From a virus (lineage: Duplodnaviria; Heunggongvirae; Uroviricota; Caudoviricetes), in IMG/VR virus record IMGVR_UViG_2734482790_000004: DNA of 64,000 nucleotides. One strand, 5' to 3'. Of the stretch, positions 1 through 21,519 are shown in pieces. Positions within the stretch are counted from its first letter, which is position 1. Each line of letters starts with the position of its first letter. The translations under genes were made by a program, and so were the position numbers. The notes beneath the pieces are model-generated. The model was not told the DNA's origin. It saw only the letters and a program-made list of their open reading frames with translations, and made no database searches.

Positions 1-3000
1 ATGCCCGTCGATTTTCTGACCACTGAGCAGGAACTGAATTATGGTCGCTATGTTGCAGAACCCAATGACGTGCAGCTGGCGCGCTATTTTCATCTTGATG
101 AGCGGGATCTTGCCTTCATTAACCAGCGGCGGGGAAGGCATAACCGGCTGGGAATTGCGCTTCAGCTCACCACCGCCCGTTTTCTGGGCACCTTTCTGAC
201 AGACTTAACCCGGGTTCTGCCAGGTGTTCAGCAATTTGTCGCGGTGCAGCTTAATATTCGCCGTCCGGAAGTCCTTACCCGCTACGCAGAACGGGTTACC
301 ACCCTCAGAGAGCATACTGCGCTGATTAAGGAATATTACGGTTACCATGAATTTGGTGATTTCCCCTGGTCTTTCCGCCTGAAGCGCCTGCTGTACACCC
401 GCGCATGGCTCAGTAATGAGCGACCCGGCCTTATGTTTGATTTTGCCACCGCGTGGCTGCTTCAGAATAAGGTCCTGCTGCCCGGAGCAACCACACTTGT
501 ACGTCTCGTCAGTGAAATACGCGAACGGGCAAATCAGCGGCTGTGGAAGAAACTGGCCGCGTTGCCGGACAGCTGGCAGACCGCCCGCGTGACGGAGCTT
601 CTGGACATTCCTGAGGGGCAGCGTACTTCACCGCTGGAGCAACTGAAAAAGGGACCGGTCACCGTCAGCGGCCCGGCATTTACCGAAGCGCTGGAGCGGT
701 ATATCCGGCTGCGAAACCTGGAATTTTCCCGACTGAATTTTACCGGTCTGCCTGCTATACAACTGCGTAATTTGGCCCGTTACGCAGGCATGGCGTCGGT
801 AAAATATATCGCGCGAATGCCACAGCAGAGAAAACTGGCCGTACTCACAGCATTCGTTAAAGCGCAGGAGACTGCGGCGCTGGATGAGGCCGTTGATGTG
901 CTCGATATGCTGATACTGGATATCACTCGTGCGGCGAAGAAAACGGGGCAGAAAAAACGGCTCAGGACGCTTAAAGATCTTGATCGTGCTGCGCTAATAT
1001 TGGCGCGGGCATGTTCATTGTTGCTGGATGAACAGGCTGACGATGCTGAACTGAGGGAGACCATATTCAACAGCATACCGAAAAGCAGGCTGGCAGAATC
1101 CGTCAGCAAGGTAAATGAGCTGGCCCGGCCTCAGAACAACAATTTCCATGACGAAATGGTGGAGCAGTACGGGCGGGTAAAGCGCTTTCTTCCGGCGGTA
1201 TTGCGCGACCTGCATTTCCAGGCAGCGCCAGCCGGAGAACATACGTTGTCCGCCATTCATTATCTGACCGAACTGAACGGCTCGAAAAAGCGCATCCTGG
1301 ACAATGCGCCTGAACATATTATTACCGGCCCCTGGAAACGCCTGGTATACGATGCGGAGGGCCGGATACAGCGTGCCGGTTACTCGCTTTGTCTGCTGGA
1401 GCGCCTTCAGGATGCACTACGTCGAAGGGACATCTGGCTCGAAAACAGCGATCGCTGGGGAAATCCCCGCGAGAAGCTGTTGCAGGGGGAAGAATGGCAG
1501 GCTCAGCGGGTCCCCGTTTGCCGGGCGCTGGGACATCCCACTGATGGACATAAAGGCGTGCAACAGTTGGCGGTCCAGCTAGATGAAACCTGGAAAACCG
1601 TCGCATCCCGCTTTGAAGGAAATGCGGAGGTTCATATTTGCCATGACGGTAAACATCCTTCCCTGACTATCAGCAGCCTGGAGAAACTGGAGGAGCCAAC
1701 ATCGTTGCATCGTCTCAACAGTCGGGTAAGGCTGCTACTCCCGCCAGTAGATTTGACGGAACTGTTGCTTGAAATAGATGCCAGAACGGGATTTACACGT
1801 GAGTTTACGCATGTCAGTGAATCCGGGGCCCGGGCACAGGATCTGCACATCAGCCTGTGCGCGGTCCTGATGGCAGAGGCCTGCAATATCGGGCTGGAAC
1901 CGCTGATAAAGCACAATATACCGGCGCTGACGCGCCACCGGCTTAGCTGGGTAAAACAGAATTACCTCCGGGCAGAAACGCTGGTCAGCGCCAATGCCCG
2001 CCTGGTTGATTTTCAGTCCACACTGGAGCTTGCTGGCCGCTGGGGTGGTGGCGAAGTGGCTTCAGCTGATGGCATGCGCTTTGTCACGCCGGTGAAAACC
2101 GTCAATTCAGGACCTAACAGAAAATATTTTGGTTCCGGACGTGGCATCACCTGGTACAACTTCGTCTCTGATCAGTACTCTGGATTCCACGGCATCGTTG
2201 TCCCCGGCACATTACGAGATTCCATTTTTGTGCTGGAAGGCCTTCTGGAGCAGCAGACAGGGCTGAATCCGGTTGAGATCATGACAGACACAGCCGGTAC
2301 CAGCGACATTATTTTTGGCCTCTTCTGGCTGCTGGGATACCAGTTTTCCCCCCGGCTTGCCGATGCCGGTGAAGCGGTATTCTGGCGAGTGGATAAATCG
2401 GCAAATTACGGTGCACTGGACGAACTGGCACGTGGTTGTGCCGATCTGTCGAAAGCCGAGGATCAGTGGGATGAGATGATGCGAACCGCCGGTTCGCTGA
2501 AACTGGGCACCATTCATGCTTCAGAACTCATTCGCTCTTTGCTGAAAAGCTCGCGCCCATCAGGGCTGGCACAGGCGATCATGGAAGTGGGGCGCGTCAA
2601 CAAGACGCTGTACCTTCTTAATTATATTGATGATGAGGATTATCGTCGGCGGATCCTGACGCAGCTAAACCGGGGGGAAGGCCGCCATGCTGTGGCGAGG
2701 GCGATCTGCTACGGGCAGCGCGGTGAGATCAGAAAGCGCTATCGTGAAGGTCAGGAAGATCAGCTGGGGGCACTGGGCCTGGTCACTAACGCAGTGGTAC
2801 TGTGGAACACACTTTATATGCAGGAAGCCCTGAGCTGGATACGCAGTAATGGAGAAGAAATCGGGGTTGAAGATATCGCCCGGTTGTCCCCACTGATGCA
2901 CGGGCATATCAATATGCTGGGGCATTATACGTTTACGCTACCGGAGGATATTTTGAAGGGGGAACTGAGAGAACTAAATTTCAATTTAAACAATGAATTA

Positions 3001-3009
3001 ACTTCTTAG
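1..3009 (+). CDS. tnpA: Tn3-family transposase TnpA (1002 aa)
   Basis: ORF begins at window position 1 with ATG; N-terminus MPVDFLTTEQ and about 1000-aa length are typical of Tn3-family TnpA; stop codon lies inside the terminal inverted repeat. Confidence 0.9.
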   Translation: MPVDFLTTEQELNYGRYVAEPNDVQLARYFHLDERDLAFINQRRGRHNRLGIALQLTTARFLGTFLTDLTRVLPGVQQFVAVQLNIRRPEVLTRYAERVTTLREHTALIKEYYGYHEFGDFPWSFRLKRLLYTRAWLSNERPGLMFDFATAWLLQNKVLLPGATTLVRLVSEIRERANQRLWKKLAALPDSWQTARVTELLDIPEGQRTSPLEQLKKGPVTVSGPAFTEALERYIRLRNLEFSRLNFTGLPAIQLRNLARYAGMASVKYIARMPQQRKLAVLTAFVKAQETAALDEAVDVLDMLILDITRAAKKTGQKKRLRTLKDLDRAALILARACSLLLDEQADDAELRETIFNSIPKSRLAESVSKVNELARPQNNNFHDEMVEQYGRVKRFLPAVLRDLHFQAAPAGEHTLSAIHYLTELNGSKKRILDNAPEHIITGPWKRLVYDAEGRIQRAGYSLCLLERLQDALRRRDIWLENSDRWGNPREKLLQGEEWQAQRVPVCRALGHPTDGHKGVQQLAVQLDETWKTVASRFEGNAEVHICHDGKHPSLTISSLEKLEEPTSLHRLNSRVRLLLPPVDLTELLLEIDARTGFTREFTHVSESGARAQDLHISLCAVLMAEACNIGLEPLIKHNIPALTRHRLSWVKQNYLRAETLVSANARLVDFQSTLELAGRWGGGEVASADGMRFVTPVKTVNSGPNRKYFGSGRGITWYNFVSDQYSGFHGIVVPGTLRDSIFVLEGLLEQQTGLNPVEIMTDTAGTSDIIFGLFWLLGYQFSPRLADAGEAVFWRVDKSANYGALDELARGCADLSKAEDQWDEMMRTAGSLKLGTIHASELIRSLLKSSRPSGLAQAIMEVGRVNKTLYLLNYIDDEDYRRRILTQLNRGEGRHAVARAICYGQRGEIRKRYREGQEDQLGALGLVTNAVVLWNTLYMQEALSWIRSNGEEIGVEDIARLSPLMHGHINMLGHYTFTLPEDILKGELRELNFNLNNELTS

Positions 3010-3042
3010 CGTACGTTTTCGTTCCATTGGCCCTCAAACCCC
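3005..3042. mobile_element. Tn3-family terminal inverted repeat (38 bp), transposon end
   Basis: Reverse complement reads GGGGTTTGAGGGCCAATGGAACGAAAACGTACGCTAAG, closely matching Tn3/Tn1000-type 38-bp IRs (GGGG...ACGAAAAC...TAAG); overlaps the tnpA stop. Confidence 0.7.
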
Positions 3043-3115
3043 TTGTATCGGATTTTCCCTGTTACTCAGCAAATCCGCAGAAGTTACGTAATAAATCTCG
3101 CACAGGATGTGTCAG

Positions 3116-3718
3116 ATGACGAAAAATAAGTATGCAACGGTCGATTTTGACCAGGTTAATGAAAAGGGGCTGAAATCCCTTATCGCGGCGATCAATAAAA
3201 CCGGTGTTACGGTAATTGAGGTTGACTCCAGCAACCGCGCAACAACGAAAGATGGCGTTAAAGTTAAAACCGCAAAGCTGGTTCTTAACGACGGACAAAT
3301 TCTTGCCATACAGGTAAACGATACTGGCGATATATCGTCTGTGAAGCTGAATGGAAAAGCTATTCCTAACGCTCAGTCGCCGGATATCAAGACGCTTGGT
3401 ACCGTCATGGGGCAAGCGGCCAGCAAAAACTCCGCAAAATTCCAGAAATCACTGATCGCCAAAGCGAAACGTGTTGCCAATCCGGTAGACAAGAAACCGG
3501 CAGTAAAATCCAACTTTCAGCGCCTGCAAGAGGCAAAACAGCGGAATGCTCAGGTGGTTGCCGCTTATAAGTCCGCGCAGAATTCGGTGTCTTTCAATCA
3601 ACAGCAGATCACTGATTTGCGGGCGAAGCTGGATAAGGAGACAGGCCGACTCAATAACGAAAAGGCCCGAAATGGCGAACTCAAACGCCGTCTTAAGCAA
3701 CTGAAAGCAGGAAATTAA
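3116..3718 (+). CDS. hdf: first gene of darA operon, Hdf-like (ORF track start 3107; second ATG at 3116 has an AGGA RBS)
   Basis: Sits immediately upstream of the 639-aa DarA ORF with 1-nt spacing; position and size fit P1 hdf (recalled, not aligned). Confidence 0.5.
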   Translation: MTKNKYATVDFDQVNEKGLKSLIAAINKTGVTVIEVDSSNRATTKDGVKVKTAKLVLNDGQILAIQVNDTGDISSVKLNGKAIPNAQSPDIKTLGTVMGQAASKNSAKFQKSLIAKAKRVANPVDKKPAVKSNFQRLQEAKQRNAQVVAAYKSAQNSVSFNQQQITDLRAKLDKETGRLNNEKARNGELKRRLKQLKAGN

Positions 3719-3719
3719 C

Positions 3720-5639
3720 ATGGAACAGTTCAATATCAATAAAGGGGTGACGATCAAGCCTGGGCTTGACGTGCTTCCCCCGCCAGTGACTGATGATGAA
3801 TATCGCGCATTAATGGCCGGTGAGGACCGCTATCTGATGACGGAATCCAACACCCTGGAGGAAATCGAGGCTACGTTCTTCTATGACACGCCGATCCACT
3901 GGTGTGCTACGGATTTACTGGAGGCGATTAGTTCTACTCGTTTGCAGTTACACCGGACCATGCAGGCATTTGTCCGGGCATTGAACCAGAAGCTGAATGG
4001 TACCGGAATCTCTGCGGGGAGTGATAAAACGGGGGATGTGGCCCAGAGCGGCGCGCGCGCGATCGGCGGTGCTGAAATTGGCCGGGCACGTAACGTTAAC
4101 GGGCTGCCGGTCCTGCCAGCCATTATTCCGCTCAGTGATGGTCAGACTATCAGCATTCTGTTTCATAGCCCGACAGCGGAAAACCGGATCACCAATAGCG
4201 ATACGCTGGTTGCTTTCCAGTTCTTACTGAATAAAAAAGACGTTACTCACACCGTTGCTCCGATGAGTGGACGTGATATGACGCTGGCGCAGGTCACCAT
4301 GAAACTTGCCAACCTTGCAGAGAAAAACTCGGCAAAATTTCAGCGTGCGCAGAAGAAGAAAAAAGCCCTTGTTGATGAAATAACCCAACTACAGGCTGAC
4401 AGTGACCAGAAAGAGGATGCCATGAGCGACCTCGCGGATCAGGTGGCAGCGGTAGAAGGGCAGAAGGTAGATCTGGAGCAGAAAATTAACGCTGTTGCAT
4501 CGGAAGCGGATTCTCTTTATGAAGAGAATGAGCGTTTGCAGACGGAGATTGATCAGCTCAATCGAACTGGTGGGCGCGAAACCATTGCTCCTGCGGGGAT
4601 GACTGGTGGACACTCTCGCGCGATGACGGATCGCCTTGCAAGTATCAAAAATCGTATGCATATGAACGGGGAAGTGACGCTCAGTAATGGTGCATCAATG
4701 AAGCAATTCATTGAGGACGGTGAAGGGTATATCCAGTTAACCGATTCGGATGGCAGCGTGTACATGATCAAGGCTAAATCCATACAGGGTGTGGACATGG
4801 CAGATGCGATCGGCAAGCTGTTTAAAGCCTATAAAGCGGGTAATGTATCGGAATACCTGGTCCAACCAGAAGAACATAAACCGGAAAACGTCGAACCTGA
4901 ACCAGCGGAGGATACCGGTAGCTCTTCGCCTGAACCAGAAGTCTCTGTAGGTGCATATCGATATGCCCTGCAAATGCGTCCGGCGGCCCCTGGCGCAATA
5001 CCTGAAGGTAACAAAGCAATTCTGCCGCGCCCTGATGAAGGTGACCCGTATTATGAATATGCACGCTACGGCATTGCTACTTACGATACCCCGCTTTCTG
5101 ATCAGCAAATGAGTGAGTACGACCTGAAGTTATTGCCTCGCGAGGATTCTTTCGACTTCCTGGCGAAGACACTTACTAATGGTCCGTTTGGCAAATATGC
5201 ACAAAAAGCTCTGGAGCTGGCCACCAGCTCACCAGACGAGTTCCGCGTAATGCTGAAAACTCAGTTTCAAAAAACTTTCCCCAATATTGCGTTTCCGGGG
5301 GGCGCTGGCACCGAGAAAATGGTGCAGAGCATGATCAATGCATTGCAGGCCGAAGTCGGTGAGATTACTCAGCCAGAACCTGCCCCGGCACAGCCTGATG
5401 AAACGGTTAGCGAAGCAGATGCAGAGGCTAATAAAGCCATTGAATATCTCAATAACGTGATGGATATGCAAAGCACTGACATGGCGGAGATCCGTAACGC
5501 CCGGGGTAATGTCCGGGAAGCGATTGCAGCCCTTCAGGCTGCCGGGCGTTTTGAGGAAAACGAAGAGCTGGTTAATGGCGCTGCTCGCCACCTGGCTGAT
5601 CTGCTGGTAGCAATCCAGAAAGCGGGGGTAGCGGCATGA
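3720..5639 (+). CDS. darA: DarA-like antirestriction/capsid internal protein (639 aa)
   Basis: 639-aa ORF in operon with downstream small and large genes; size and context match P1 DarA. Confidence 0.75.
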   Translation: MEQFNINKGVTIKPGLDVLPPPVTDDEYRALMAGEDRYLMTESNTLEEIEATFFYDTPIHWCATDLLEAISSTRLQLHRTMQAFVRALNQKLNGTGISAGSDKTGDVAQSGARAIGGAEIGRARNVNGLPVLPAIIPLSDGQTISILFHSPTAENRITNSDTLVAFQFLLNKKDVTHTVAPMSGRDMTLAQVTMKLANLAEKNSAKFQRAQKKKKALVDEITQLQADSDQKEDAMSDLADQVAAVEGQKVDLEQKINAVASEADSLYEENERLQTEIDQLNRTGGRETIAPAGMTGGHSRAMTDRLASIKNRMHMNGEVTLSNGASMKQFIEDGEGYIQLTDSDGSVYMIKAKSIQGVDMADAIGKLFKAYKAGNVSEYLVQPEEHKPENVEPEPAEDTGSSSPEPEVSVGAYRYALQMRPAAPGAIPEGNKAILPRPDEGDPYYEYARYGIATYDTPLSDQQMSEYDLKLLPREDSFDFLAKTLTNGPFGKYAQKALELATSSPDEFRVMLKTQFQKTFPNIAFPGGAGTEKMVQSMINALQAEVGEITQPEPAPAQPDETVSEADAEANKAIEYLNNVMDMQSTDMAEIRNARGNVREAIAALQAAGRFEENEELVNGAARHLADLLVAIQKAGVAA

Positions 5640-6001
5640 CACTATCAGCTATTGAGTTAATGGATCTCAGCGATAAGTTGGATGCTCTGATGTCCAAAGC
5701 GGCTACCGCGAGTGGCATGGAGTTGCTGGATATCAGCGATGAAATCGACCAGATCATGCAACAGATGGGGTACGGCGCGTCCGGCGGTGGTAGTGGCGAG
5801 GAAAAACAACCTTCGGAACATGATGGTGTGCCAAAACTGGTTGCTGATTTCCTGGCTGATAAATTCGTCGATCAGAGCACCGATGCATTTATCGGTACCT
5901 TGCAGGATTTGAGTCAATATGTTGGCACATACATCGACCTGGACCAGGTTAAACAGCACACGGCGGCATGGATAGCCGCCAACATTAAAGAGGCAGCATA
6001 A
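5636..6001 (+). CDS. ddrA: DdrA-like protein (121 aa)
   Basis: ATGA overlap with darA stop; operon position matches P1 ddrA. Confidence 0.5.
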   Translation: MTLSAIELMDLSDKLDALMSKAATASGMELLDISDEIDQIMQQMGYGASGGGSGEEKQPSEHDGVPKLVADFLADKFVDQSTDAFIGTLQDLSQYVGTYIDLDQVKQHTAAWIAANIKEAA

Positions 6002-6013
6002 GGCGTAACAGGG

Positions 6014-9001
6014 ATGAGCTTAAGCGATCAGGTGGTAATGGCCACCAGCATAGAAACGCTGATCGAGCTGCTAAAGAACTTGCCCGATTATGGGCGGGTT
6101 TCGTATGTGGTGACAGCGAAGGGAGACGAGGTAAAAACAGCGTTTGATATCGTCGATGCCTCAGCTCTTTTGGTATCCAATACTCTGGATGGGAAAATTA
6201 ATCCTGACTATCCCCAGGAACTTCAACCGCGCGACCGGACCCGCGCATCCAGCCTTCTTCAGGTTAACCAGATATCCAAGGATTTGCGGCCTGCTCAGCT
6301 TACCGATTCCGGTCTATCCAGCCATGGCGCGCCGATAATTGGTGAGGACAATGCCGTTGAGTCAGGTAATGGACGGACCATGGGGATCATTAAAGCCTAT
6401 CAGGACGGCAATGCGGATCGGTATCGTGAGTACCTGATTGATCATGCGACCGAATTCGGCATACGACCTGAAAAGGTTGAATCAATGACGGCTCCGGTAC
6501 TGGTGCGCCGCCGGTTAACTAAGGTTGACCGCGTTCAGTTTGCCAAGGACTCAAATATTTCTGATCTTCAGGAAATGGCAGCCAGTGAAAAGGCTTTTGT
6601 TGATGCCGACAGCATAACACCGGCGATGATGGCGCTTTTTAACCCGTCAGAAAGCGGAGATCTGCTTAGCCGCAGTAATGACACGTTTATTCGCGGATTT
6701 ATGACGCAAGTTGGTGCCACACAGGCGGCTGGCCTTGTAACTGAAGATGGGCGACCAACACGGCAACTTGTAGACCGTATACAAAACGCGATCTTTGCCA
6801 AGGCATATAAGGATGCGCGCCTGGTAAGGATGGTTGCAGAAGAACCTGATCCGGATATGCGTAATGTTCTGACGGCGCTTAATGCGGCAGCCAATGATTT
6901 TGTCCAGATGCAGGCTTTGTCAGGAGAAGCGCACAAGCAGGCTGTGACAACTATTGTTGATGGCATTGAGACAGCGGATAGCCTCGATAAAAAGGCGCTG
7001 GCGGCATTGAAAGATGCGGTAGACCTGGTAAGGCAATCGAAGGAGTCAGGCCAGCATATTACCGATGTTATTGCTCAGGGGGATATGTTCAGCGAAACGG
7101 CCCCGGAAGTGAAAGCACTCGCGTTGTTCATCGTCGCGAATAACCGTAGCGCGAAGCGTATGGCCACCGCCTTTAAATTGATGGCTCAACGTATCAATGA
7201 TGAGTTACAGCACCAGTGCCAGGCGCTGGGGGATATGTTTGGCGGTGGTGATGTGTCGTTACAGGATATCCTTCGCCAGGTGTCTCAGGAACTGGAAAAC
7301 GAAGGCATGCAAGGGATATCCGGCGGTCTTTTCGAGTCCGTTTCCGGCGGTAGTTACAACGGTGTTGCTCCATATACCAGTTTGCTATTACATCGGGCAT
7401 CCGGCATCAAAGACATTATTCATCTGATCAGGCTGCTTTCCCGTACAGATCCCCAGGATGAACAGCTTGTTCAAGTGCTTGCGCATTTTGTTCGAATGCC
7501 TGTTGCCGACGTGAAAAAATGGTGCCGATTATTCGGTATCAGCAATTCGTTACTTCGCGGCTTGTTAAATCACGCATCCTCCCTTGGGCGCGATGGCTTT
7601 GACGAGATAGCGCAGGCGATAAAAAACGGAGATATGCCACCAGCTATTGACTGGTTTTCCATTCGCCCAACCAGGGTGAAAGCATTCCTTAGCGCGGCGC
7701 ATTCGGCATCACCATTGGCAGAAATGGTTCAGAGGTTGTCGCTCATATTCACAGACCATACCGCGTTGGGTGATCTGACTCTGGACGAGATGAAAGAAGC
7801 CTCCATTCAGTGGGCCGATCAACAAAATGAGGTTAACTCAGACTTCTTGCCAGCATTCAGGAAGGCCGTTAGTAAAGCGGATGATGCCCGTGGAATTCTG
7901 AAGGCATTTAAGGCATTGCAAAGTCGGGTTAATAAACATGTCGGTGATATCGATGGGGTAACGGCGGAAGGCAGGGATATCCTTAAAGAGCACGGCATAA
8001 CGCCAGAGTTTATTGATGAGATCAGGACGGATATGCAGCGTGAGGTCGTATCGTCCCTGCAAATTGTAGCCAGAGCATTGGCGGATGCTAATCCGAAGAG
8101 TGCGGCCATTGTTAACCGGGTTATTGGTGATATTGAAGCATCGGAGGGCATGGGGGCGCTGAAACTCTTCCTTTCGCGAGCGTTTAATCCTAACGGCAAT
8201 ATTCTCCCTGGCATTATTGGTGAGGCTAAAAGGTATGTCAGTGAAGAAGAACTTGAGCAGCTTGACCAACTACTTAAGCGATTCTCATATAACCCGCAGA
8301 CACGCTGGCAAATGAATCAGCGAAGTATGGGTTCGGTCCACGAGAAAGTGTTATCTGCCATGAACAGTGCGATCGCAAACTCATCCGTATCTGAAGAAAA
8401 AGCTCTTGAGTGGGCCGACTCTTTTATCACGGAAGAAGTGGAAGAAGCCCGCGCTGGACAGAATGGTGGGATAGACCTGCGCAAGGAACTTGCTGATATT
8501 TATCGCCTGACCGGCGGTAAAATTTCGACCTTATCAAAGGTGGTTCACCACCAGGGAAGGGCATATGCAAATCTTAATGGTGTTGTTGCTGTCAATTTGA
8601 ACGATGAAAATGCAAGTGCACTGTGGCACGAGCTGGGTCATCATCTTGAGTACAGTAACCCTGGTTTGTTAGAGAAAGCCCGGTCATTCCTGAAGGCCAA
8701 TGTTGAAGGGGATAAGCCATCTTTCGTTAATATCGGTGGGCGTGGCAAGCCTGAATGGTGCTTCAGATCTCGATTGAGTAATATTTATATGGCGAAGGTA
8801 TACCCGCCAGCCTCAGTGAGTAACTCCGGGAAAATTCGGCAGAAAGCACCGACTATTTCAAAAACATCAGCAACGGAAGTATTCTCTATGGCTCTTCAGT
8901 TGTATCATGACAAAGAGGCCGCTGCCGCATCACTGATGAATGGTGACGGATTGCTGGAACTGTTATTAGGTGTGGCAAAGGAGCTAAATAATGCAGATTA
9001 A
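6014..9001 (+). CDS. ddrB: DdrB-like large protein (995 aa) with HEXXH motif
   Basis: Operon position and size; contains WHELGHHLEY (zincin-like HEXXH) at about nt 8627-8641. Confidence 0.55.
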   Translation: MSLSDQVVMATSIETLIELLKNLPDYGRVSYVVTAKGDEVKTAFDIVDASALLVSNTLDGKINPDYPQELQPRDRTRASSLLQVNQISKDLRPAQLTDSGLSSHGAPIIGEDNAVESGNGRTMGIIKAYQDGNADRYREYLIDHATEFGIRPEKVESMTAPVLVRRRLTKVDRVQFAKDSNISDLQEMAASEKAFVDADSITPAMMALFNPSESGDLLSRSNDTFIRGFMTQVGATQAAGLVTEDGRPTRQLVDRIQNAIFAKAYKDARLVRMVAEEPDPDMRNVLTALNAAANDFVQMQALSGEAHKQAVTTIVDGIETADSLDKKALAALKDAVDLVRQSKESGQHITDVIAQGDMFSETAPEVKALALFIVANNRSAKRMATAFKLMAQRINDELQHQCQALGDMFGGGDVSLQDILRQVSQELENEGMQGISGGLFESVSGGSYNGVAPYTSLLLHRASGIKDIIHLIRLLSRTDPQDEQLVQVLAHFVRMPVADVKKWCRLFGISNSLLRGLLNHASSLGRDGFDEIAQAIKNGDMPPAIDWFSIRPTRVKAFLSAAHSASPLAEMVQRLSLIFTDHTALGDLTLDEMKEASIQWADQQNEVNSDFLPAFRKAVSKADDARGILKAFKALQSRVNKHVGDIDGVTAEGRDILKEHGITPEFIDEIRTDMQREVVSSLQIVARALADANPKSAAIVNRVIGDIEASEGMGALKLFLSRAFNPNGNILPGIIGEAKRYVSEEELEQLDQLLKRFSYNPQTRWQMNQRSMGSVHEKVLSAMNSAIANSSVSEEKALEWADSFITEEVEEARAGQNGGIDLRKELADIYRLTGGKISTLSKVVHHQGRAYANLNGVVAVNLNDENASALWHELGHHLEYSNPGLLEKARSFLKANVEGDKPSFVNIGGRGKPEWCFRSRLSNIYMAKVYPPASVSNSGKIRQKAPTISKTSATEVFSMALQLYHDKEAAAASLMNGDGLLELLLGVAKELNNAD

Positions 9002-9296
9002 AATCGCAGCGCCATTAGGCGGAGATGCCATTATCGAATTTGATGATAATGAAGAAGTTTCCGGGCGTTTAAGCATTATCTCCGGTGACATTACCGAGGA
9101 CATGATCGCTGAAGCCATAGCTGGGGCAAATCCCAATAGCTATATGGGATTCGTTAACACCCTTGATGCTCCCGCAAGTGATGTTCTCCGAACGCTGCAT
9201 CTTTACGCTGGCTGGTTTGTCGATTGGCCAGCAGTAGAGGGTGGCGATGAGGACGACGATGATTTTGGGGATCATGTAGACCAGATCGTATATTAA
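8991..9296 (+). CDS. acidic hypothetical protein, distal gene of darA operon (101 aa)
   Basis: Overlaps ddrB stop; D/E-rich C-terminus. Confidence 0.4.
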   Translation: MQIKIAAPLGGDAIIEFDDNEEVSGRLSIISGDITEDMIAEAIAGANPNSYMGFVNTLDAPASDVLRTLHLYAGWFVDWPAVEGGDEDDDDFGDHVDQIVY

Positions 9297-9425: not shown

Positions 9426-10214
9426 TTGCGTTTCGCTCACCACATATTGAACACTTTAGCCGATCTTTTAATTCTTCCAGAGTCAATCCTGAAGCTACAG
9501 TTTGGTGGAGATACCTGGACTCAGACTGATGTATTTATGACCCAGCGTGCTACTGGCGTCGCGACCTATCGTAACAATGATTTCTTCGGCTTGGTTGATG
9601 GTCTGAACTTTGCTTTGCAGTATCAGGGTAAAAATGATAGTGCTGCAAAAGTGAACAACTGGAAAGGCCGCGACGTAGTTGAATCTAATGGTGATGGCTT
9701 CGGTCTGTCAGCTACTTATGATTATGAAGGATTTGGCATTGGCGCAACTTATGCAAAATCTGACCGTACTGATGGACAGGTATCCTATGCTAAAGCCCCT
9801 CTGAATCTGAATGCCTCTGGTAAAACTGCTGAAGTATGGGCTACGGGCCTGAAATATGATGCAAACAACATTTACCTGGCTACAACTTATTCTGAAACTC
9901 AGAATATGACAGTCTTCGGTGATGACCATATCGCGAACAAGGCGAAAAACTTTGAAGCCGTTGCTCAATACCAGTTTGATTTCGGCCTGCGTCCGTCCAT
10001 CGCTTACCTACACTCTCGCGGTGAAAATATTGGTGCGTTCGGTAACCAGGATCTGGTTGAATACATCGACGTGGGCGCGACTTATTACTTTAACAAAAAT
10101 ATGTCCGCTTTCGTTGACTACAAGATCAACCTGATTGATGAAAGTGAATTTACCAAAACATCTGAGGTTGCAACCGACAACATCGTTGCTGTTGGTATGA
10201 CCTACCAATTCTAA
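9426..10214 (+). pseudogene. 5'-truncated OmpC/OmpF-family porin gene fragment
   Basis: Translation from about nt 9500 has the porin C-terminal beta-barrel pattern and ends VAVGMTYQF (porin C-terminal signature); N-terminal part of a roughly 360-aa porin is absent; ORF-track start MRFAHH is not a real porin start. Confidence 0.75.
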
Positions 10215-11954: not shown

Positions 11955-14685
<2,731 letters not shown>

Positions 14686-14751: not shown

Positions 14752-17700
14752 ATGAACAAGCTATCTATGGGTGTGTTTCGCTGTTCAAGTGTCAGCGAAA
14801 TATTGAAATACATTAGGGCAATAACATCTCACCGAGCGCCGATTAAATACGGCGTGGAAAAGGTGGAAGGCAAAAGCTATGACCGACTGCGCCGGGAGGC
14901 GAATCAGAAGGCGATAGATTTGCTTAATTCGCTGGTGGACGGCGCGACACTGACAGATGAACAGCGCCAGATCCTGGCCGGGTACACTGGTGAAGGCGGC
15001 ATTGGCGGGTCCGTCTCCGAATATTACACACCAAAGCCTATCGCTGAAGGTGTCTGGGAGATCATGAAGCTCTACGGCGCGGACGTAGGTAACACTCTGG
15101 AACCATCGGCGGGAACCGGCGTTTTTAATGAGACAAAACCGGTTGGTACGGTGATGACCGCGACTGAGATCAGCAGTGTTTCCGGTCGTATAAACCAGTT
15201 GTTACACCCGGAAGACAGCGTACAGATTTCCCCGTTCGAACAGCTGGCTATAAACACGCCTAACGATTCATTCGACCATGTTGTGGGTAACGTTCCGTTC
15301 GGCGGTCGTGATAACACACGCAACATCGATAAGCCTTACGCAGAAGAAACGGACATGGGGTCTTACTTCATGCTCCGCATGCTGGACAAGATAAAACCTG
15401 GCGGATTCATGTGTGTGATTGTGCCGCCGTCCATTGTTTCAGGTTCAAACATGAAACGGTTACGCCTGCGCCTATCACGGAAAGCTGAATTTCTTGGTGC
15501 CCACCGCTTGCCTACCGGTACTTTTGACGCAAACGGGACCAGTACAGTTGTTGATGTGGTGCTGATGCGCAAACATCCGGCAGAGATGGCTGAGAAAATC
15601 CCCCTGGTGGATGAAAGCACTCTCGAATCGGCAAATGTGCTTTGGCCAACGTTTATTTCTGGCAAGTGGTTTGAAAAGGACGGCCGCCGGTTTGTTCATG
15701 GCACCCAGGAAAAGGGCTTCCAGGGGCGTATTGAGGTTCGTGCCGACGGTCAGATTGATAACCAGGCTCTTAAAGCGAAGCTGATTCATCGTTTCGAAAG
15801 CCGTATCGACTGGTCTTTGCTCGATATGGCTGAACCGTCACCGACCGCAGACGTTGTTGGTGAAGGGGAAATGCGCCTGATTAATGGCGTATGGCAAAAA
15901 TATGCTGGTGGTCGCTGGATTGAAGCTGATGCAGGGAAGGAACTTAAGATCGATGCTGCCAGTTATGGCGCGGATAGCTGGGAGGCTCTTCAGCGTAACC
16001 TGACTACAACAGAAGGCCGTCTCGGCATGACATTTACCCAGATGGCAAATGTCCGCGATAAGTACACCACATCAATCAGCGACGATATGGTGCAGCTGGT
16101 GGACTGGATTAACAGCCAGCCTGAAAAATACCGTGAACGCTTGTATCGCGGGGCGATGATTGGCCGGATGTTAATTGAATATCAGGACATGAAGGCCGCC
16201 GGGCATAGTGCTGAACAAATCGAACAGCAGCGCCTTTCTCTGGTATCCCGTTTGCAGGCAGAGATTGACCGTTTTGGTAACCCCGGTCGCGGTCCGATAG
16301 CGAAATTATCGGGGAGCGGTGCGCGCGCCTGGTTTGCTTTCCGTGGTGCAATTAAGCTGGATGGCACTATTTCTGACGAGCTGACAGGAAAACTGGTTAC
16401 GCATGATTCCAGCGCCAGTTATGACTCCACCAGCTATCAGGACACCCTGCGTTATCTCTACAGTGATCTCACTCGCGATCCAATCCAGCTCGATGATTTC
16501 CGCCTTGCGTTTACCGGCGAACTGCCAGCCAGTGATGACGAGTTGCTTAATTTATTGGCCAGCACCCCTGGCATTGCGGTTTCACCGTATGGCGGGATTG
16601 TTCCGTTCGCCCGCGCCACCAGCGGCGACATTAACGAGATAGTGGCTCCAAAACAGGAATTCCTCGCCACGCTCCCCGACGGTCCAGTAAAGAACAACGT
16701 CCTTAATCAGCTGGCAGCGATCGAAGAGAAGCGCATCAAGACGCCAGCAGAGAATATCCGCTTTAAGCTCAATAGCCGTTGGTTCGACCGTTCCGTCATT
16801 CTGGAGTTTTTGCAGGAAAACGGCTATCCGGATCTGCGCTATGTGCAGTCAGTGCAGCTGGAAGGCGACGAAATGGTTTCTGACACCTATCACGGTGGTG
16901 ATGGCCTGTTCGTCGGGCACCGATACGGTGTCGTCCAGCGTAAGGATAAAGAAACAGGCGAGATCCGCTACGAGTGGGACCGTAAATCAGGTGAAAACGC
17001 GACCGGGTTCCCGGCACAGCTGGAAAAGTATCTCAATGGTGCGCGTATCGGTGGCAAAGATAGCGCGACGGCGAACGGCTACCGCGAGCAGATGGCACTG
17101 CTTGAGGACCAGTTCAATAAGTGGATCAAGACGCACGATCGCTACGATGAGCTGGTTGCTAAATACAACGATGTGTTCAATAGCAATATCCCGTATGAAC
17201 ACTCTGGCGATCCGCTTGGGTTGAAGGGATTAAGCGGTAAGCGCCAGCCATTTGATTACCAGAATAGCGAGGTGCGCCGACTGTCCGAAGATGGGCGCGG
17301 CATCCTGGGCTTCGGCACCGGGCTGGGTAAAACCACGACCGCGCTGGCGCTTGAGGCGTTCAACTATGAGAACGGTCGCTCCACCCGTACTGCGTATGTA
17401 GTGCCTAAATCAGTGCTGGAAAACTGGTATTACGAAGCAAAAGAATTCCTGAGTGAAGAGGCATTCAGTAACTACCTGTTCGTCGGTCTTGATGTGCTGA
17501 TGGATGGCGATCAGATTCGCCAGGTGCAGGTGCTCGATGAGAACGGTAAACCTGTTCTTGGTACTGATGGCACTCCAGTTATGCGCGATGCTCTTAAGCT
17601 GGCAGATGAAGCCACTATCACGGCGCGGATGAACGCGATCCCGCACTCAAATTACCGTGCAGTCGTGTTTACCAAAGAACAATACGCCCGCATTCCGCTA

Positions 17701-20700
17701 CGTGATGACACCGTAGATGAGCATGCACAGGATATGCTTTATGACTTCGTTGCCGCCGGACGCGTAGCCAGCGCAATGGACTCCGACTCCCACCGCAAAG
17801 AGGCCGCGCGTCGCCGGGTATTGTCGGAGTATTCAGATACCGGCACCGAAAAAGCAGAGAAGTATCCGTACTTTGAGGATATGGGCTTCGATAGTGTGAT
17901 CGCCGACGAAGGCCACAACTACCGCAATAGCTATAAAAATGGTCGCGAAGCGTCACAGCTAGCCTATCTGCCCACCAGCGCGGTAGCGCAATCGGCGCGA
18001 GATATGGCAATTAAAAACGCGTACCTGATGAAAAAGAATGGTGGGCGCGGGCCGGTTCTCCTGACTGCAACGCCAGTCGTTAACACCCCGATCGATGCAT
18101 ACAACATGCTTTCTCATGTTCTGCCGAAGGAATACTGGCAGAACATGGGGATCTACGGTCCTGATGACTTCGTTAAATTCTTCGGCAAGACCAGGCTGGA
18201 AACGGTACAGAAAATTAGCGGTGAAGTTGAAGAAAAAATGGCGCTGGTGGGCTTTGAAAACCTTGATGCGCTGCGCGGTATATTCCATCGCTGGGTAACG
18301 CTTAAAACGGCGGAAGACGTTAAGGATACCGTGGAGATCCCGGAGCTGGACGAACACCAGCAGGATGCACCACTTACTGAAGAACAACTGGCGGCGTATG
18401 AAGAATTGCGTCAGCAGGCGGAAGCGGCGGCCAAAGCCAACAATGGCGTAACGACCTCGGTCAATGAAGACGGCGTGATTGAGCACGAGAAAGCCCGTCC
18501 GATCTTCTCAATAATCAGGGATATGGACCGCGTATGTACTGACATGGACCTGTACTATCGCCGGATCACCTATCGTTTCCTGCCGGAGTACGCCGATGCG
18601 GTGCAGCAGCTGGCGGACAGTTTGCCTAAACAAGCCACCAGCGAAGACGACGACAGTGATGATTCAATCACGCAGCAATCGCAATACTCCCTGATAGATA
18701 AGGGCGAGTTTATTCAGTTGCAGGTTCCGGAAGCGTTCGAGCAGGAAGTGAATAAGCGCCTGGCCAGGTTTGGCATTGACGAACAGACCGTAACTCACCC
18801 CGTTACGCCCAAATACGCGAAGCTGATTGCCACGCTGAAGGAGTTTTTCCCGGAAGGTAAGCAAATCATCTTCACCGATGAAAAAACGCAGCACCAGAAG
18901 CTCAAGCGCATTATCTGCAATGCTCTTAACCTTGAACCTTCAAAGGTGGGGATACTGAATGCTCAGACGGTTGCCGAGGCAGGTAAAACCGGTAAGAAAC
19001 TGAAAGCGGTTAAACCGCCGAAAGAGTTACCGGATGAACCAACAGATGCACAGATAGCGAAATACAACGAGCAAATGGCTCTGTATGACGCCTATATCGC
19101 GCAGCAAAATGAAATGTCGTTGGGCGGTCTGGAAAAGATTGCAGCCGACTTCCAGGAGGGCCGGACTCCGATCATCATCTGCAACAAAAAGGCAGAAGTG
19201 GGTATCAACCTGCATCGAGGAACGACTGACATCCATCATCTGACGTTGCCATGGACTCCAGCCAGTATTGCGCAACGAAACGGTCGCGGTGCCCGAGTTG
19301 GCTCCAACCGTGCAAGCGTTCGCGTTCACTACTACTGCGGCAAGGGGTCTTTCGATGAATACCGACTGAAGACGCTGAAGCGTAAAGCAGGCTGGATCTC
19401 CGATATCCTCCGTTCAGATAAGTCAGAAATGGAGAACGCCGACGCCAACGATATGATCGAAATGCAGATGTATACCGCGAAGGATGACGGCGAACGTCTG
19501 GCAATGATGCAGGTTCAAATGGATAAGGCGAAAGCTGCGAAACGCGCTCGCCAGAAAGAACAGGCTACTATCGACCTTCAGAACTACATCAAGGCGCAGC
19601 ACGCAGCTGGTGAGGATGTGGAGGTACTTACCGCTGAATTGGAGCGAAGCAAAGCGGAACTTGAAAAGACCACCGCCGACGTCGCCAAATTCAAACAGGC
19701 GGTAATGGCCAAAGCAGCTGATAACGCAGACTGGAAAGCCCGCTGGGGTAGCGTCCATCACACAGACCGTATGTTGTTAGCACAGTATCGCGCGTCGTTG
19801 AAAAGCGCCATTCAGCGCAAGGCTAATATCTCTCAGGCCATCTCCCGCTATGAGAAATTATTGAACCGTACTCAGAAGGCCGCGACGGATATCAAACGCC
19901 TGCGCCCGCTGGTGGAGGATGCAATAAATAAAGGCATTCTGGATGTTGATCCTGATCTGGTTAACCATGCGAATGAGTTCCTTGTTATCGGCGATCGCTC
20001 ATGGCGTGTAGGCCAATACTATGATTGTGCCGGTGATATCGTTCGCATTAAGTCGCTGGACTTCGACAGCCAGCGCGCAGACGTGGAGATCATCTTTACC
20101 TTCAAAGGCACCAAATCGGGTAACTGGGATGTGAAGACGCTGGATAAACAGGTTGATGTAACTCCCGATGAAGATGCTGTTATGCAGAAAATCAGTGGTG
20201 GCGTCTCCATCGCCGGGATTAACGACATCGTTTCCTGTGACGATTTCTACCGTTTCCAGCAGCGCGGCATGATCAAAATCACTGACTCATACGGCGTTCA
20301 GACTACAGAGTCAGGCTATAGCATTGATTTTGTTGGTACCTATACGGACCCACTGAAGCATGCGGTTTACCCGGATCGCCGTGACGGCGCGCTGAAGTCG
20401 TCAATTGCAAAATGGGTGCTTGGTATGATGTCGGAAGGGAATAACCGCCAGATCCGTTCGGCAGAAGCATTCCTGGTTGAACTGTTTGGCTCCAATTATG
20501 GCGATGTAATCGCGTCATACGGAGATACGCTATCCCCTGAAGCACTTCAGGAGAAAATAGCGGATGCGATCGCCAGAATGCCGGAGAAAACAAGCCAGGG
20601 GGCTACTCGTAACGGGGATTCTGAACTTGAAGTCACCAATGCCATTTTCGGTACCAATGAGTTCCGGGCGTCAGATTATGAGATCACCACAGCACAGTTT

Positions 20701-21519
20701 GGCACCATTGGCATTTACAGCAATAAAGCCGAGATCAAGCAGGCAATGGACGCAGCAAGCGCGCGCATCGCAGCAGAACGGGAAGCCAATCTGAATCATG
20801 CAGTCGCCGCGCTGACTCAATCGTGGGTAACAGCAATCAGGGAGGCCGCCACCACAGGGAAAATCACACCTGCAATAGCGGATGTCGTAAACGACGGCTC
20901 TAAATTTATGGATGCCTATCAAATGGATGCGGTGAAGTTGCCATCAGCCTATGGTCAACTCAGCTATCGCATGACCTACAACCTGGTATCAATGTTTTCC
21001 GACCTTGCCATCCTTGGGCTGGTGGATCTTAACGAGGTTACGCCGGAATTGCTCAGCATGCGCAAGAATCATGTGGAGATATTGCAGAGAATTAACACGG
21101 TTCTTGCCGGGCGCACCGATGAAGAGAAACAGGCCGACGCTGATCGGATAAACCTGGCCCTTGGCAACATCACGGAGGAAGAGATTGCCGCCAGAAACGA
21201 GAAACAAGAAGAGTTATCATCAATACAGGGTGATGCCACCAGCATAGCTCAGTCTCTTGGTCTGAATTATCGCGTATCCACCGCCGACCTGAAGATGATG
21301 TACGCACCAAAATTCGCCGCTGGCGAGGTATTTGGGCTTCAGGAAGCCTCAGGCATGAAAGGCGTTCTTTTCCGTGCGAAAGACGCAATCAAGGCGAAAT
21401 TCGGCGCTCGCTGGCTGCCAGCGAAGGCGAAGAACAGCGATTTCCCGGGTAACTGGTGGATTATCGAGACAAAACACAACGTGGCGGACGTTCTGGCCGT
21501 CATCCAACAATACGCATAA
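14752..21519 (+). CDS. darB: DarB giant antirestriction protein (2255 aa), methyltransferase plus helicase domains
   Basis: Exact 2255-aa length with AAGGA RBS; helicase motifs (GFGTGLGKT, VIADEGHNYRN); matches P1 DarB architecture. Confidence 0.85.
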   Translation: MNKLSMGVFRCSSVSEILKYIRAITSHRAPIKYGVEKVEGKSYDRLRREANQKAIDLLNSLVDGATLTDEQRQILAGYTGEGGIGGSVSEYYTPKPIAEGVWEIMKLYGADVGNTLEPSAGTGVFNETKPVGTVMTATEISSVSGRINQLLHPEDSVQISPFEQLAINTPNDSFDHVVGNVPFGGRDNTRNIDKPYAEETDMGSYFMLRMLDKIKPGGFMCVIVPPSIVSGSNMKRLRLRLSRKAEFLGAHRLPTGTFDANGTSTVVDVVLMRKHPAEMAEKIPLVDESTLESANVLWPTFISGKWFEKDGRRFVHGTQEKGFQGRIEVRADGQIDNQALKAKLIHRFESRIDWSLLDMAEPSPTADVVGEGEMRLINGVWQKYAGGRWIEADAGKELKIDAASYGADSWEALQRNLTTTEGRLGMTFTQMANVRDKYTTSISDDMVQLVDWINSQPEKYRERLYRGAMIGRMLIEYQDMKAAGHSAEQIEQQRLSLVSRLQAEIDRFGNPGRGPIAKLSGSGARAWFAFRGAIKLDGTISDELTGKLVTHDSSASYDSTSYQDTLRYLYSDLTRDPIQLDDFRLAFTGELPASDDELLNLLASTPGIAVSPYGGIVPFARATSGDINEIVAPKQEFLATLPDGPVKNNVLNQLAAIEEKRIKTPAENIRFKLNSRWFDRSVILEFLQENGYPDLRYVQSVQLEGDEMVSDTYHGGDGLFVGHRYGVVQRKDKETGEIRYEWDRKSGENATGFPAQLEKYLNGARIGGKDSATANGYREQMALLEDQFNKWIKTHDRYDELVAKYNDVFNSNIPYEHSGDPLGLKGLSGKRQPFDYQNSEVRRLSEDGRGILGFGTGLGKTTTALALEAFNYENGRSTRTAYVVPKSVLENWYYEAKEFLSEEAFSNYLFVGLDVLMDGDQIRQVQVLDENGKPVLGTDGTPVMRDALKLADEATITARMNAIPHSNYRAVVFTKEQYARIPLRDDTVDEHAQDMLYDFVAAGRVASAMDSDSHRKEAARRRVLSEYSDTGTEKAEKYPYFEDMGFDSVIADEGHNYRNSYKNGREASQLAYLPTSAVAQSARDMAIKNAYLMKKNGGRGPVLLTATPVVNTPIDAYNMLSHVLPKEYWQNMGIYGPDDFVKFFGKTRLETVQKISGEVEEKMALVGFENLDALRGIFHRWVTLKTAEDVKDTVEIPELDEHQQDAPLTEEQLAAYEELRQQAEAAAKANNGVTTSVNEDGVIEHEKARPIFSIIRDMDRVCTDMDLYYRRITYRFLPEYADAVQQLADSLPKQATSEDDDSDDSITQQSQYSLIDKGEFIQLQVPEAFEQEVNKRLARFGIDEQTVTHPVTPKYAKLIATLKEFFPEGKQIIFTDEKTQHQKLKRIICNALNLEPSKVGILNAQTVAEAGKTGKKLKAVKPPKELPDEPTDAQIAKYNEQMALYDAYIAQQNEMSLGGLEKIAADFQEGRTPIIICNKKAEVGINLHRGTTDIHHLTLPWTPASIAQRNGRGARVGSNRASVRVHYYCGKGSFDEYRLKTLKRKAGWISDILRSDKSEMENADANDMIEMQMYTAKDDGERLAMMQVQMDKAKAAKRARQKEQATIDLQNYIKAQHAAGEDVEVLTAELERSKAELEKTTADVAKFKQAVMAKAADNADWKARWGSVHHTDRMLLAQYRASLKSAIQRKANISQAISRYEKLLNRTQKAATDIKRLRPLVEDAINKGILDVDPDLVNHANEFLVIGDRSWRVGQYYDCAGDIVRIKSLDFDSQRADVEIIFTFKGTKSGNWDVKTLDKQVDVTPDEDAVMQKISGGVSIAGINDIVSCDDFYRFQQRGMIKITDSYGVQTTESGYSIDFVGTYTDPLKHAVYPDRRDGALKSSIAKWVLGMMSEGNNRQIRSAEAFLVELFGSNYGDVIASYGDTLSPEALQEKIADAIARMPEKTSQGATRNGDSELEVTNAIFGTNEFRASDYEITTAQFGTIGIYSNKAEIKQAMDAASARIAAEREANLNHAVAALTQSWVTAIREAATTGKITPAIADVVNDGSKFMDAYQMDAVKLPSAYGQLSYRMTYNLVSMFSDLAILGLVDLNEVTPELLSMRKNHVEILQRINTVLAGRTDEEKQADADRINLALGNITEEEIAARNEKQEELSSIQGDATSIAQSLGLNYRVSTADLKMMYAPKFAAGEVFGLQEASGMKGVLFRAKDAIKAKFGARWLPAKAKNSDFPGNWWIIETKHNVADVLAVIQQYA

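Follow-up and report, generated by a model that had tools for sequence, protein, structure and literature searches.

The last ~230 residues of DdrB, a 995-residue product of the Dar locus of a P1/P7-like phage, form a conserved module that is very likely a zincin-like peptidase domain. It is quite possible, if somewhat short of probable, that this is a gluzincin-type MPTase module that cuts DdrB itself, or its immediate Dar partners, around loading into the phage head or release from it. An earlier note on the window (the whole stretch of 64,000 nucleotides analysed here) had claimed an HEXXH signature in DdrB within positions 8600-8660, and the signature is indeed there: LWHELGHHLEY occupies residues 870-880 (nt 8621-8653), with HELGH at residues 872-876 (nt 8627-8641). 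The metallopeptidase idea for DdrB is already known. The P1 RefSeq record carries the words 'possible metallopeptidase' (the P1 annotation dates from 2004), ddrB of phage JL22 is annotated as a 'putative metallopeptidase', and Iyer, Burroughs, Anand, de Souza and Aravind (2017; PMC5512222) described a zincin-like MPTase domain at the C-terminus of P1 DdrB and predicted autoproteolysis of the protein. The present analysis adds confirmation, through counts of invariant residues and a domain model of high confidence, and the finding that the DdrB clade lies outside the curated HMMs.

The Dar genes of the window that are relevant here are the following:
3107..6001, plus strand: upstream Dar genes, hdf (3107-3718), darA (3720-5639) and ddrA (5636-6001), from open reading frames and a gene order as in P1 and JL22
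6014..9001, plus strand: ddrB coding sequence, 995 codons and stop, from the ORF list and translation; 98-99% identical to P1/P7 ddrB, with a full-length match to phrog_2299
14752..21519, plus strand: darB, 2255 aa, with Pfam matches to N6_Mtase, SNF2 and Helicase_C

Over its full length (2988 nt) ddrB shows 99.0% nucleotide identity to the P7 gene and 98.4% to that of P1. The order hdf-darA-ddrA-ddrB-hxr is the same in the window, P1 and JL22, and the orthologues of P1 (YP_006491.1), P7, JL22, RCS47 and SJ46 are the same gene, of the same length and in the same context; the window's copy differs from them by a few substitutions that leave the motifs untouched. Unlike these relatives, the window has a Tn3-family element immediately upstream of hdf. 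The darA product matches both DarA_N and DarA_C in Pfam. DdrB is a head protein, represented in virions by 39 unique peptides and 59.5% peptide coverage, and the packaging of DarB depends on it, its listed role being 'Aids DarB addition to capsid' (PMC9024508, Table 1). Gonzales et al. (2022) do not itemise the individual DdrB peptides in their supplement.

DdrB can be divided into three parts:
6119..6514, plus strand: N-terminal DdrB-type ParB/Srx-like domain, aa 36-167 (Pfam PF18763, ddrB-ParB; high pLDDT in the full-length model)
6584..8290, plus strand: all-helical middle region, about aa 191-759, predicted with low to moderate confidence (full-length AF2 model, DSSP, pLDDT)
8306..8998, plus strand: conserved C-terminal module, aa ~765-995, with a helical lead-in followed by a putative zincin-like metallopeptidase core (phmmer, alignment limits, AF2)

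The PF18763 match is strong (E 5.6e-40; 136.7 bits, where the cut-off is 27.6). Flexible segments are predicted in the middle region at residues 302-322, 436-449, 513-527, 539-549 and 759-763, and the first ~500 residues of DdrB are common to giant phage proteins (phrog_5143, phrog_14693).

Conservation of the C-terminal module was assessed with phmmer against 1.84 billion representatives, which returned 390 matches at E<=1e-3; residues were counted over the 149 domain rows less than 60% identical to the query. A word-indexed homologue search with DdrB returned fragments only, with uninformative names. In all 157 copies that span both motifs, at a mean identity of ~30%, HExxHxx[E/D] is kept together with a downstream [T/S]E[V/I/L/A]x[S/T/A], the 'glutamate helix', and HExxHxxE is likewise invariant in homologue alignments A1 and A3. 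H872, E873 and H876 are each present in 149/149 divergent rows and E879 in 148, so that the motif is conserved among DdrB homologues, as the earlier note had asked. Around E955 (149/149), T954 and S958 are kept in 134 and 140 rows; upstream of the motif the figures are 147 for R849, 124 for A850 and 132 for A852, and between the two motifs 144 for E914, 149 for Y925, 133 for K928 and 147 for Y930. Relatives of the module are fused to the virion-associated Phage_Mu_F domain (7/75), to ddrB-ParB (12/75) and to InPase, and also adjoin portal and capsid genes.

A pentapeptide of this kind may arise by chance, without functional meaning: the motif is short, and a scaled figure of ~0.5 occurrences would be expected per 20,000 residues of such composition. 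For DdrB as a whole the expectation from its composition is 0.025, and no other HEXXH occurs in the window's stop-free segments of 150 aa or more, which number 59 and total 20,286 aa. However, the motif is invariant in all homologues alongside a second invariant Glu helix, and it lies inside a predicted helix that follows a β-sheet. We reject a chance origin, to which we attach a practically negligible probability, because the conservation is too strong.

The AF2 model of residues 760-995 has a pLDDT of 92.7 and a pTM of 0.89. Its features, and those of the alignment, are as follows:
8537..8593, plus strand: predicted three-stranded sheet before the active-site helix, aa 842-860, with R849-A-Y-A as a near-invariant strand (DSSP, domain and full-length AF2 models)
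8615..8656, plus strand: predicted active-site helix, aa 868-881 (DSSP, domain and full-length models)
8627..8650, plus strand: H872-E873-L-G-H876-H-L-E879, that is, HEXXH with a Glu three residues on (HExxHxxE; sequence, conservation)
8753..8803, plus strand: E914, Y925 and K928-x-Y930 ('YxGKxY'), invariant residues between the two helices (alignment)
8807..8866, plus strand: insertion of ~20 residues, aa 932-951, in homologues of the P1 type and a minority of the rest (alignment, pLDDT)
8873..8899, plus strand: predicted 'glutamate helix' T954-E955-V-F-S958-M-A (alignment; helix at domain residues 197-203)

In domain numbering, DSSP places a helix at 63-73, strands at 83-86, 92-93 and 98-101, the HEXXH helix at 108-122 and the Glu helix at 197-203. 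In protein numbering, the two AF2 models give a helix at 822-832 and strands at 842-845, 851-853 and 857-860, followed by the helix at 868-881. The succession of helix, three strands, HEXXH helix and Glu helix agrees with the zincin core described in PMC5512222 and with the gluzincin definition quoted in PMC7213743, and the fold predicted around the motif thus has the element order of a zincin. E955-V-F-S958, at the start of its predicted helix, fits the gluzincin motif (E,H)xx(A,F,T,S,G) as quoted in PMC7213743, which makes E955 the candidate third metal ligand. The insertion at aa 932-951 fills its columns in only 6-47 of the 149 rows, and the pLDDT drops there to 67-81. Possibly, E914, Y925, K928 and Y930 make contacts to the substrate or the transition state.

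Direct evidence for a zincin fold in DdrB is weak. A Foldseek search of the PDB with the domain model gave no match at E<=1e-3, the closest zincins being the M1 peptidase 6ifg (E=2.9) and Zmp1 3zuk (E=9.3); the full-length model gave only helical-repeat noise in the PDB, and the domain model found only uncharacterised family members in BFVD. Residues 760-995 and 823-995 matched no Pfam family even at E<=10, PF18818 (MPTase-PolyVal) included; NCBIfam gave no match to the C-terminal domain and PHROGs no named family, only matches of unknown function. Sequence and profile searches of PDB sequences returned nothing significant (FtsH at E ~1.7); aristolochene synthase, at E 0.56, is a match to the motif alone. 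The sub-threshold Pfam matches of family members fall mostly in zincin families: M91, Reprolysin_2 to 5, Zincin_1, SprT-like, ATLF and M66. The metzincins, among them the M12B reprolysins, share the HEXXH helix, and a few family members have weak matches to Reprolysin_2 to 5. However, DdrB lacks the Gly and the His that metzincins have three and six positions beyond the second His, its sequence being HELGHHLEYSN and the family consensus HExGHHxExxNP in place of HEXXHXXGXXH/D; a metzincin or reprolysin assignment was rejected because this extended motif is absent. The M12B reprolysin label on the homologue of Xanthomonas phage Rb1 probably reflects a match to the motif alone.

We infer that the module is one of the 'MPTase' domains, which recur in polyvalent proteins packaged in virions or delivered by conjugation. 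The core of these MPTases (N-terminal helix, three strands, HEXXH helix, Glu helix; PMC5512222) is arranged as in the DdrB model, and the two share the same associations with MuF, DdrB-ParB and InPase. Unlike other polyvalent MPTases, the DdrB clade is missed by Pfam PF18818, and it is set apart by an Arg in the strand that precedes the helix, by Glu rather than Asp three residues after HEXXH, and by an insert of ~75 residues between the HEXXH and Glu helices. ArdC of plasmid R388, an antirestriction protein like DdrB, has a DNA-binding N-terminal domain and, in its solved structure, a C-terminal gluzincin with H201, H205, E229 and a water (PMC7213743). Its homologues carry PF18818. Aligned with hhalign to the ArdC metalloprotease-domain alignment, DdrB scored P=0.0015 with a probability of only 17% over 50 columns, a score reached by 0/100 column shuffles, and the helix, the 'RAY' strand and the HEXXH helix are all in register, with the DdrB HEXXH over H201/E202/H205 and RAYA over RAYY; when the HEXXH helix was removed, the remaining upstream similarity was within noise (P=0.02). 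Global mode gave no usable alignment with ArdC, because a long insert separates the two helices: ~24 residues lead up to the Glu helix in ArdC, against ~79 in DdrB. The two proteins also differ in delivery, ArdC being delivered to, or expressed in, conjugation recipients, whereas DdrB is packaged in the capsid.

Were the module active, H872 and H876 on the active-site helix, with E955 on the later helix, would hold a divalent metal, E873 would act as general base, activating the water, and E879, R849, E914, Y925 and Y930 would line the pocket. Its most likely job would be cleavage in cis: DdrB would cut itself, or no more than its immediate partners among the Dar proteins, at about the time of its loading into the P1 head or of its release, and the ParB-like and helical parts would be split from the peptidase. 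That DdrB itself is the substrate we put forward tentatively, as somewhat less than probable. That DdrB is processed to a form of 76 kDa is cited second-hand in Iyer et al. (2017; PMC5512222), and a virion peptide coverage of 59.5% sits uneasily with the packaging of only a 70% fragment.

The earlier note had instead envisaged processing of packaged Dar proteins, which would make DdrB a maturation protease that acts in trans on DarA, DarB, Ulx and Hdf inside the prohead. DdrB is packaged alongside other Dar proteins and is required for the incorporation of DarB (PMC9024508, PMC12810830), DarA loses ~9 kDa from its N-terminus (PMC12810830), and DdrB has what looks, in sequence and model, like an active peptidase domain. 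However, both this cleavage of DarA and the one at E120/S121 of the major capsid protein have been credited to the T4 gp21-like prohead protease Pro (PMC9024508, PMC12810830). Moreover, Hdf and DarA are loaded ahead of DdrB (PMC12810830), so that processing of DarA has no obvious need for DdrB, and ddrB has no known tie to any processing defect. We consider a maturation role in trans distinctly unlikely. The window has its own rival candidate for the processing of Dar proteins, on the opposite strand and 3 kb downstream of ddrB:
11955..13004, minus strand: pro, prohead protease gene, identified from a gene order shared with P1 and JL22

The Pro of the window has no Pfam match above threshold; that of P1 matches the T4 prohead core protease 5JBL with an HHpred value of 99.4% (PMC9024508, supplement). 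In fold and mechanism, Pro and T4 gp21 are unrelated to the zincin-like module of DdrB.

Alternatively, the peptidase may act after ejection, either to release or activate Dar cargo or to cut some protein of the host, for instance a component of type I restriction. For the MPTase domains of the N4 vRNAP, ArdC and TraC1, which are delivered without being processed, Iyer et al. suggest that action may follow delivery (PMC5512222), and the 59.5% coverage in virions (PMC9024508) is compatible with a packaged peptidase domain. No host target is known, however, and the loss of DarB packaging explains the ddrB phenotype (PMC9024508). The ArdC active-site mutant E229A, moreover, kept its antirestriction activity, and degradation of HhaI was not observed (PMC7213743), which tells against the reading in cis as well and suggests that the DdrB peptidase may be dispensable for the known phenotype. 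Action after ejection is unlikely in our view. An improbable extension holds that the peptidase is packaged and co-ejected and carries out a proteolytic antirestriction step in the infected cell, where it might free or activate DarB or another part of the Dar cargo, or else cut a component of the host's type I restriction or BREX systems. As a corollary, the 76-kDa virion form could be a C-terminal fragment (aa ~300-995, 75.9 kDa) that, on the model, could start at the predicted flexible linker at aa 302-322 and keep the peptidase, the opposite of the published guess that an N-terminal ParB fragment is packaged.

The functional ArdC E229A protein (PMC7213743) also fits a zincin-derived fold that serves mainly as a structural or packaging adaptor, in which catalysis is irrelevant or lost. 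The sole demonstrated role of DdrB is to help DarB into the capsid (PMC9024508), and the MPTase-containing region of the N4 vRNAP is needed for encapsidation (PMC5512222). Yet the catalytic-type residues (H, E, H, E, E, Y, Y and R) are all invariant across 149-157 divergent copies, a pattern expected from selection for catalysis and not for a scaffold, and an adaptor devoid of relevant catalysis seems to us quite improbable.

An active DdrB peptidase would mean one more step, a proteolytic one, in a classic phage antirestriction system. It would also offer a way into the question of how the trimming of large internal head proteins, for packaging or for release, comes about, which would bear on the use of P1 as a protein-delivery vehicle.

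By its sequence, the open reading frame at 6014..9001 is identified as ddrB of a P1/P7-like phage: along its full 2988 nt, nucleotide identity is 99.0% to P7 and 98.4% to P1. The order hdf-darA-ddrA-ddrB-hxr is that of P1 and JL22, and the HEXXH sequence that the earlier note had placed at 8600-8660 in the 995-aa DdrB is there, LWHELGHHLEY and HELGH both falling within that range:

3107-3718, hdf, upstream of ddrB
3720-5639, darA, upstream of ddrB
5636-6001, ddrA, directly preceding ddrB
6014..9001, plus strand, ddrB, ORF of 995 aa
8621-8653, plus strand, LWHELGHHLEY, DdrB aa 870-880
8627-8641, plus strand, HELGH, inside LWHELGHHLEY of DdrB
8991-9296, hxr, overlapping the 3' end of ddrB

The antisense ORF iddB (132 aa; 6568-6966, minus strand), annotated within ddrB in P1, is intact in the window too. 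Upstream, window 1-3043 holds a Tn3-family transposase gene (1002 aa, from base 1; DDE_Tnp_Tn3, E 1e-150). Behind it comes a Tn3-family-like terminal repeat, whose end, ...ggccctcaaacccc, falls at about 3043. Since similarity to P7/P1 starts only at about 3037, inside P1 lydB, the element appears to truncate lydB and to stand between the hdf-darA-ddrA-ddrB genes on one side and lydA and the late promoter LPdar on the other. Downstream, the site occupied in P1 by isaB/IS1/isaA holds a porin gene (9426-10214, plus strand; Porin_1, E 9e-94), as it does in P7 (nmpC) and JL22 (ompD). Because this ORF matches the Porin_1 profile only from position 105, it may be 5'-truncated or frameshifted, or the wrong start codon may have been chosen.

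The putative metallopeptidase domain of DdrB is already known and is not new: a C-terminal MPTase domain was identified in P1 DdrB (Iyer et al., 2017; PMC5512222), the P1 RefSeq entry reads 'unknown protein function; possible metallopeptidase', and JL22 ddrB is annotated 'putative metallopeptidase'. A literature search found no published experiment on the DdrB peptidase. No other HEXXH occurs in the long stop-free segments of the window, which total 20,286 aa, and 0.025 would be expected in DdrB from composition; such odds alone are weak evidence, and the deciding point is conservation. A phmmer search of 1.84 billion cluster representatives with DdrB aa 760-995 returned 390 proteins at E<=1e-3 (33 at E<=1e-10), and an iterated local alignment was built from the best 150 of these. 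Of its rows, 149 share less than 60% identity with DdrB; in these, H872, E873, H876, E955 and Y925 are each conserved in 149/149, E879 in 148, Y930 and R849 in 147, and E914 in 144; MAFFT alignments give the same invariant residues, at about 30% mean column identity over the domain. HExxHxx[E/D] with a downstream [T/S]E[V/I/L/A]x[S/T/A] occurs in 157/157 domain copies spanning both motifs, a count that includes two or three copies within single proteins. Because the H/E/H residues and E955 are invariant in divergent homologues, the earlier note's reading is not refuted by a lack of conservation.

AlphaFold2 modelled aa 760-995 from a 46-sequence alignment with a pLDDT of 92.7 and a pTM of 0.89. 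Three lead-in helices precede helix 822-832, strands 842-845, 851-852 and 857-860, and helix 867-881, which bears H872, E873, H876 and E879; helix 883-896, a hairpin, a short helix, loop 932-951 and helix 956-962, starting at E955, follow. The loop, modelled with lower confidence, reaches its greatest length in P1-type proteins and in a minority of others. As modelled, this order, which the full-length model reproduces, is that of the zincin core of Iyer et al.: an N-terminal helix, a three-stranded sheet, the HEXXH helix and the Glu helix (PMC5512222). The ArdC structure paper gives (E,H)xx(A,F,T,S,G) as the 'glutamate helix' motif of gluzincins (PMC7213743), and E955-V-F-S958 agrees with it. 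Foldseek with the domain model gave no significant solved-structure match (best zincin, M1 peptidase 6ifg, E=2.9), and BFVD only uncharacterised relatives. The C-terminal domain matches no Pfam model even at E<=10, PF18818 included, and no NCBIfam model at E<=1; the sole Pfam match in DdrB is the N-terminal ddrB-ParB (aa 36-167, E 5.6e-40). Sub-threshold Pfam matches of individual family members are mostly to zincin families, largely through similarity of the motif helix.

ArdC of R388 (22591-23484, minus strand, in its locus L007) had been chosen beforehand as the solved relative and was aligned with 95 homologues carrying PF18818 (96 sequences). Using hhalign, 50 columns pair in the correct register, the DdrB-family consensus 'DlaxxYRLTGG...RAxA...I...LWHExGHH' with ArdC 'ELDAFFAATGA...RAYY...IHM...LAHEATHW', at P=0.0015, yet with a probability of only 17%. 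None of 100 column-shuffled controls reaches the score (maximum 19.2, against 27.7); without the HEXXH helix the register is the same, but the score lies within noise (P=0.02). Homology to ArdC-type domains is thus plausible. From motifs and predicted element order, the C-terminal domain of DdrB is very probably a zincin-like peptidase domain, and this part of the earlier note's reading stands.

The earlier note also suggested that DdrB might process packaged Dar proteins; cleavage of DarA and of the capsid protein is credited to the prohead protease Pro (PMC9024508, PMC12810830). We propose that DdrB would be an active metallopeptidase cutting in cis, around packaging or ejection. Iyer et al. 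(2017) cite, second-hand, processing of DdrB that yields a 76-kDa form; their prediction is that the protein cleaves itself before it is packaged (PMC5512222). By mass arithmetic, aa 1-696 (76.1 kDa) would end inside a predicted helix, and aa 301-995 (75.9 kDa) would start at the predicted flexible segment 302-322; a cut in the 759-763 linker would yield 83.1- and 25.7-kDa fragments. The masses therefore do not single out the packaged fragment, and we infer all of this from the second-hand figure of 76 kDa. Segment 302-322 (window 6917-6979), where a 76-kDa C-terminal fragment would begin, is the stretch in which the full-length model has its lowest confidence. The high peptide coverage of DdrB in the P1 head (39 unique peptides, 59.5%; PMC9024508) is a hint that virions contain most of the protein. 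DdrB helps DarB enter the capsid (PMC9024508). In ArdC, antirestriction was not abolished by mutation of the metal-ligand Glu (PMC7213743). The ddrB gene is dispensable for plating.

Among relatives, 66 proteins have the domain at the C-terminus and 73 have it internally, while in 13 it stands alone. Pfam matches in 75 full-length relatives include ddrB-ParB (12), Phage_Mu_F, a head-morphogenesis domain (7), and InPase (2). The homologue of Xanthomonas phage Rb1 (L004:3206-5119) lies between 'internal head protein' and SNF2-type ATPase genes, recalling the P1 Dar gene set, and that of a marine phage contig between portal and capsid genes; these neighbours and fusions fit a virion-packaged 'polyvalent' cargo. 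The Rb1 protein is annotated 'metallo-peptidase family M12B reprolysin-like', but HEXXHXXGXXH, the metzincin motif, is absent from the family, and the annotation therefore probably arose as an artefact of a motif-only match. Some homologues (P0086, P0022, P0048 and P0070) carry two or three tandem peptidase modules per polypeptide, with motifs intact in every copy; P0086, of 1877 aa, has three. The domain (window 8306-8998) is widespread, with 390 clusters at 50% identity and neither a Pfam nor an NCBIfam model, and is an easy candidate for a new curated family with the signature R...HExxHxxE...E...YxGKxY...TEVxSMG.
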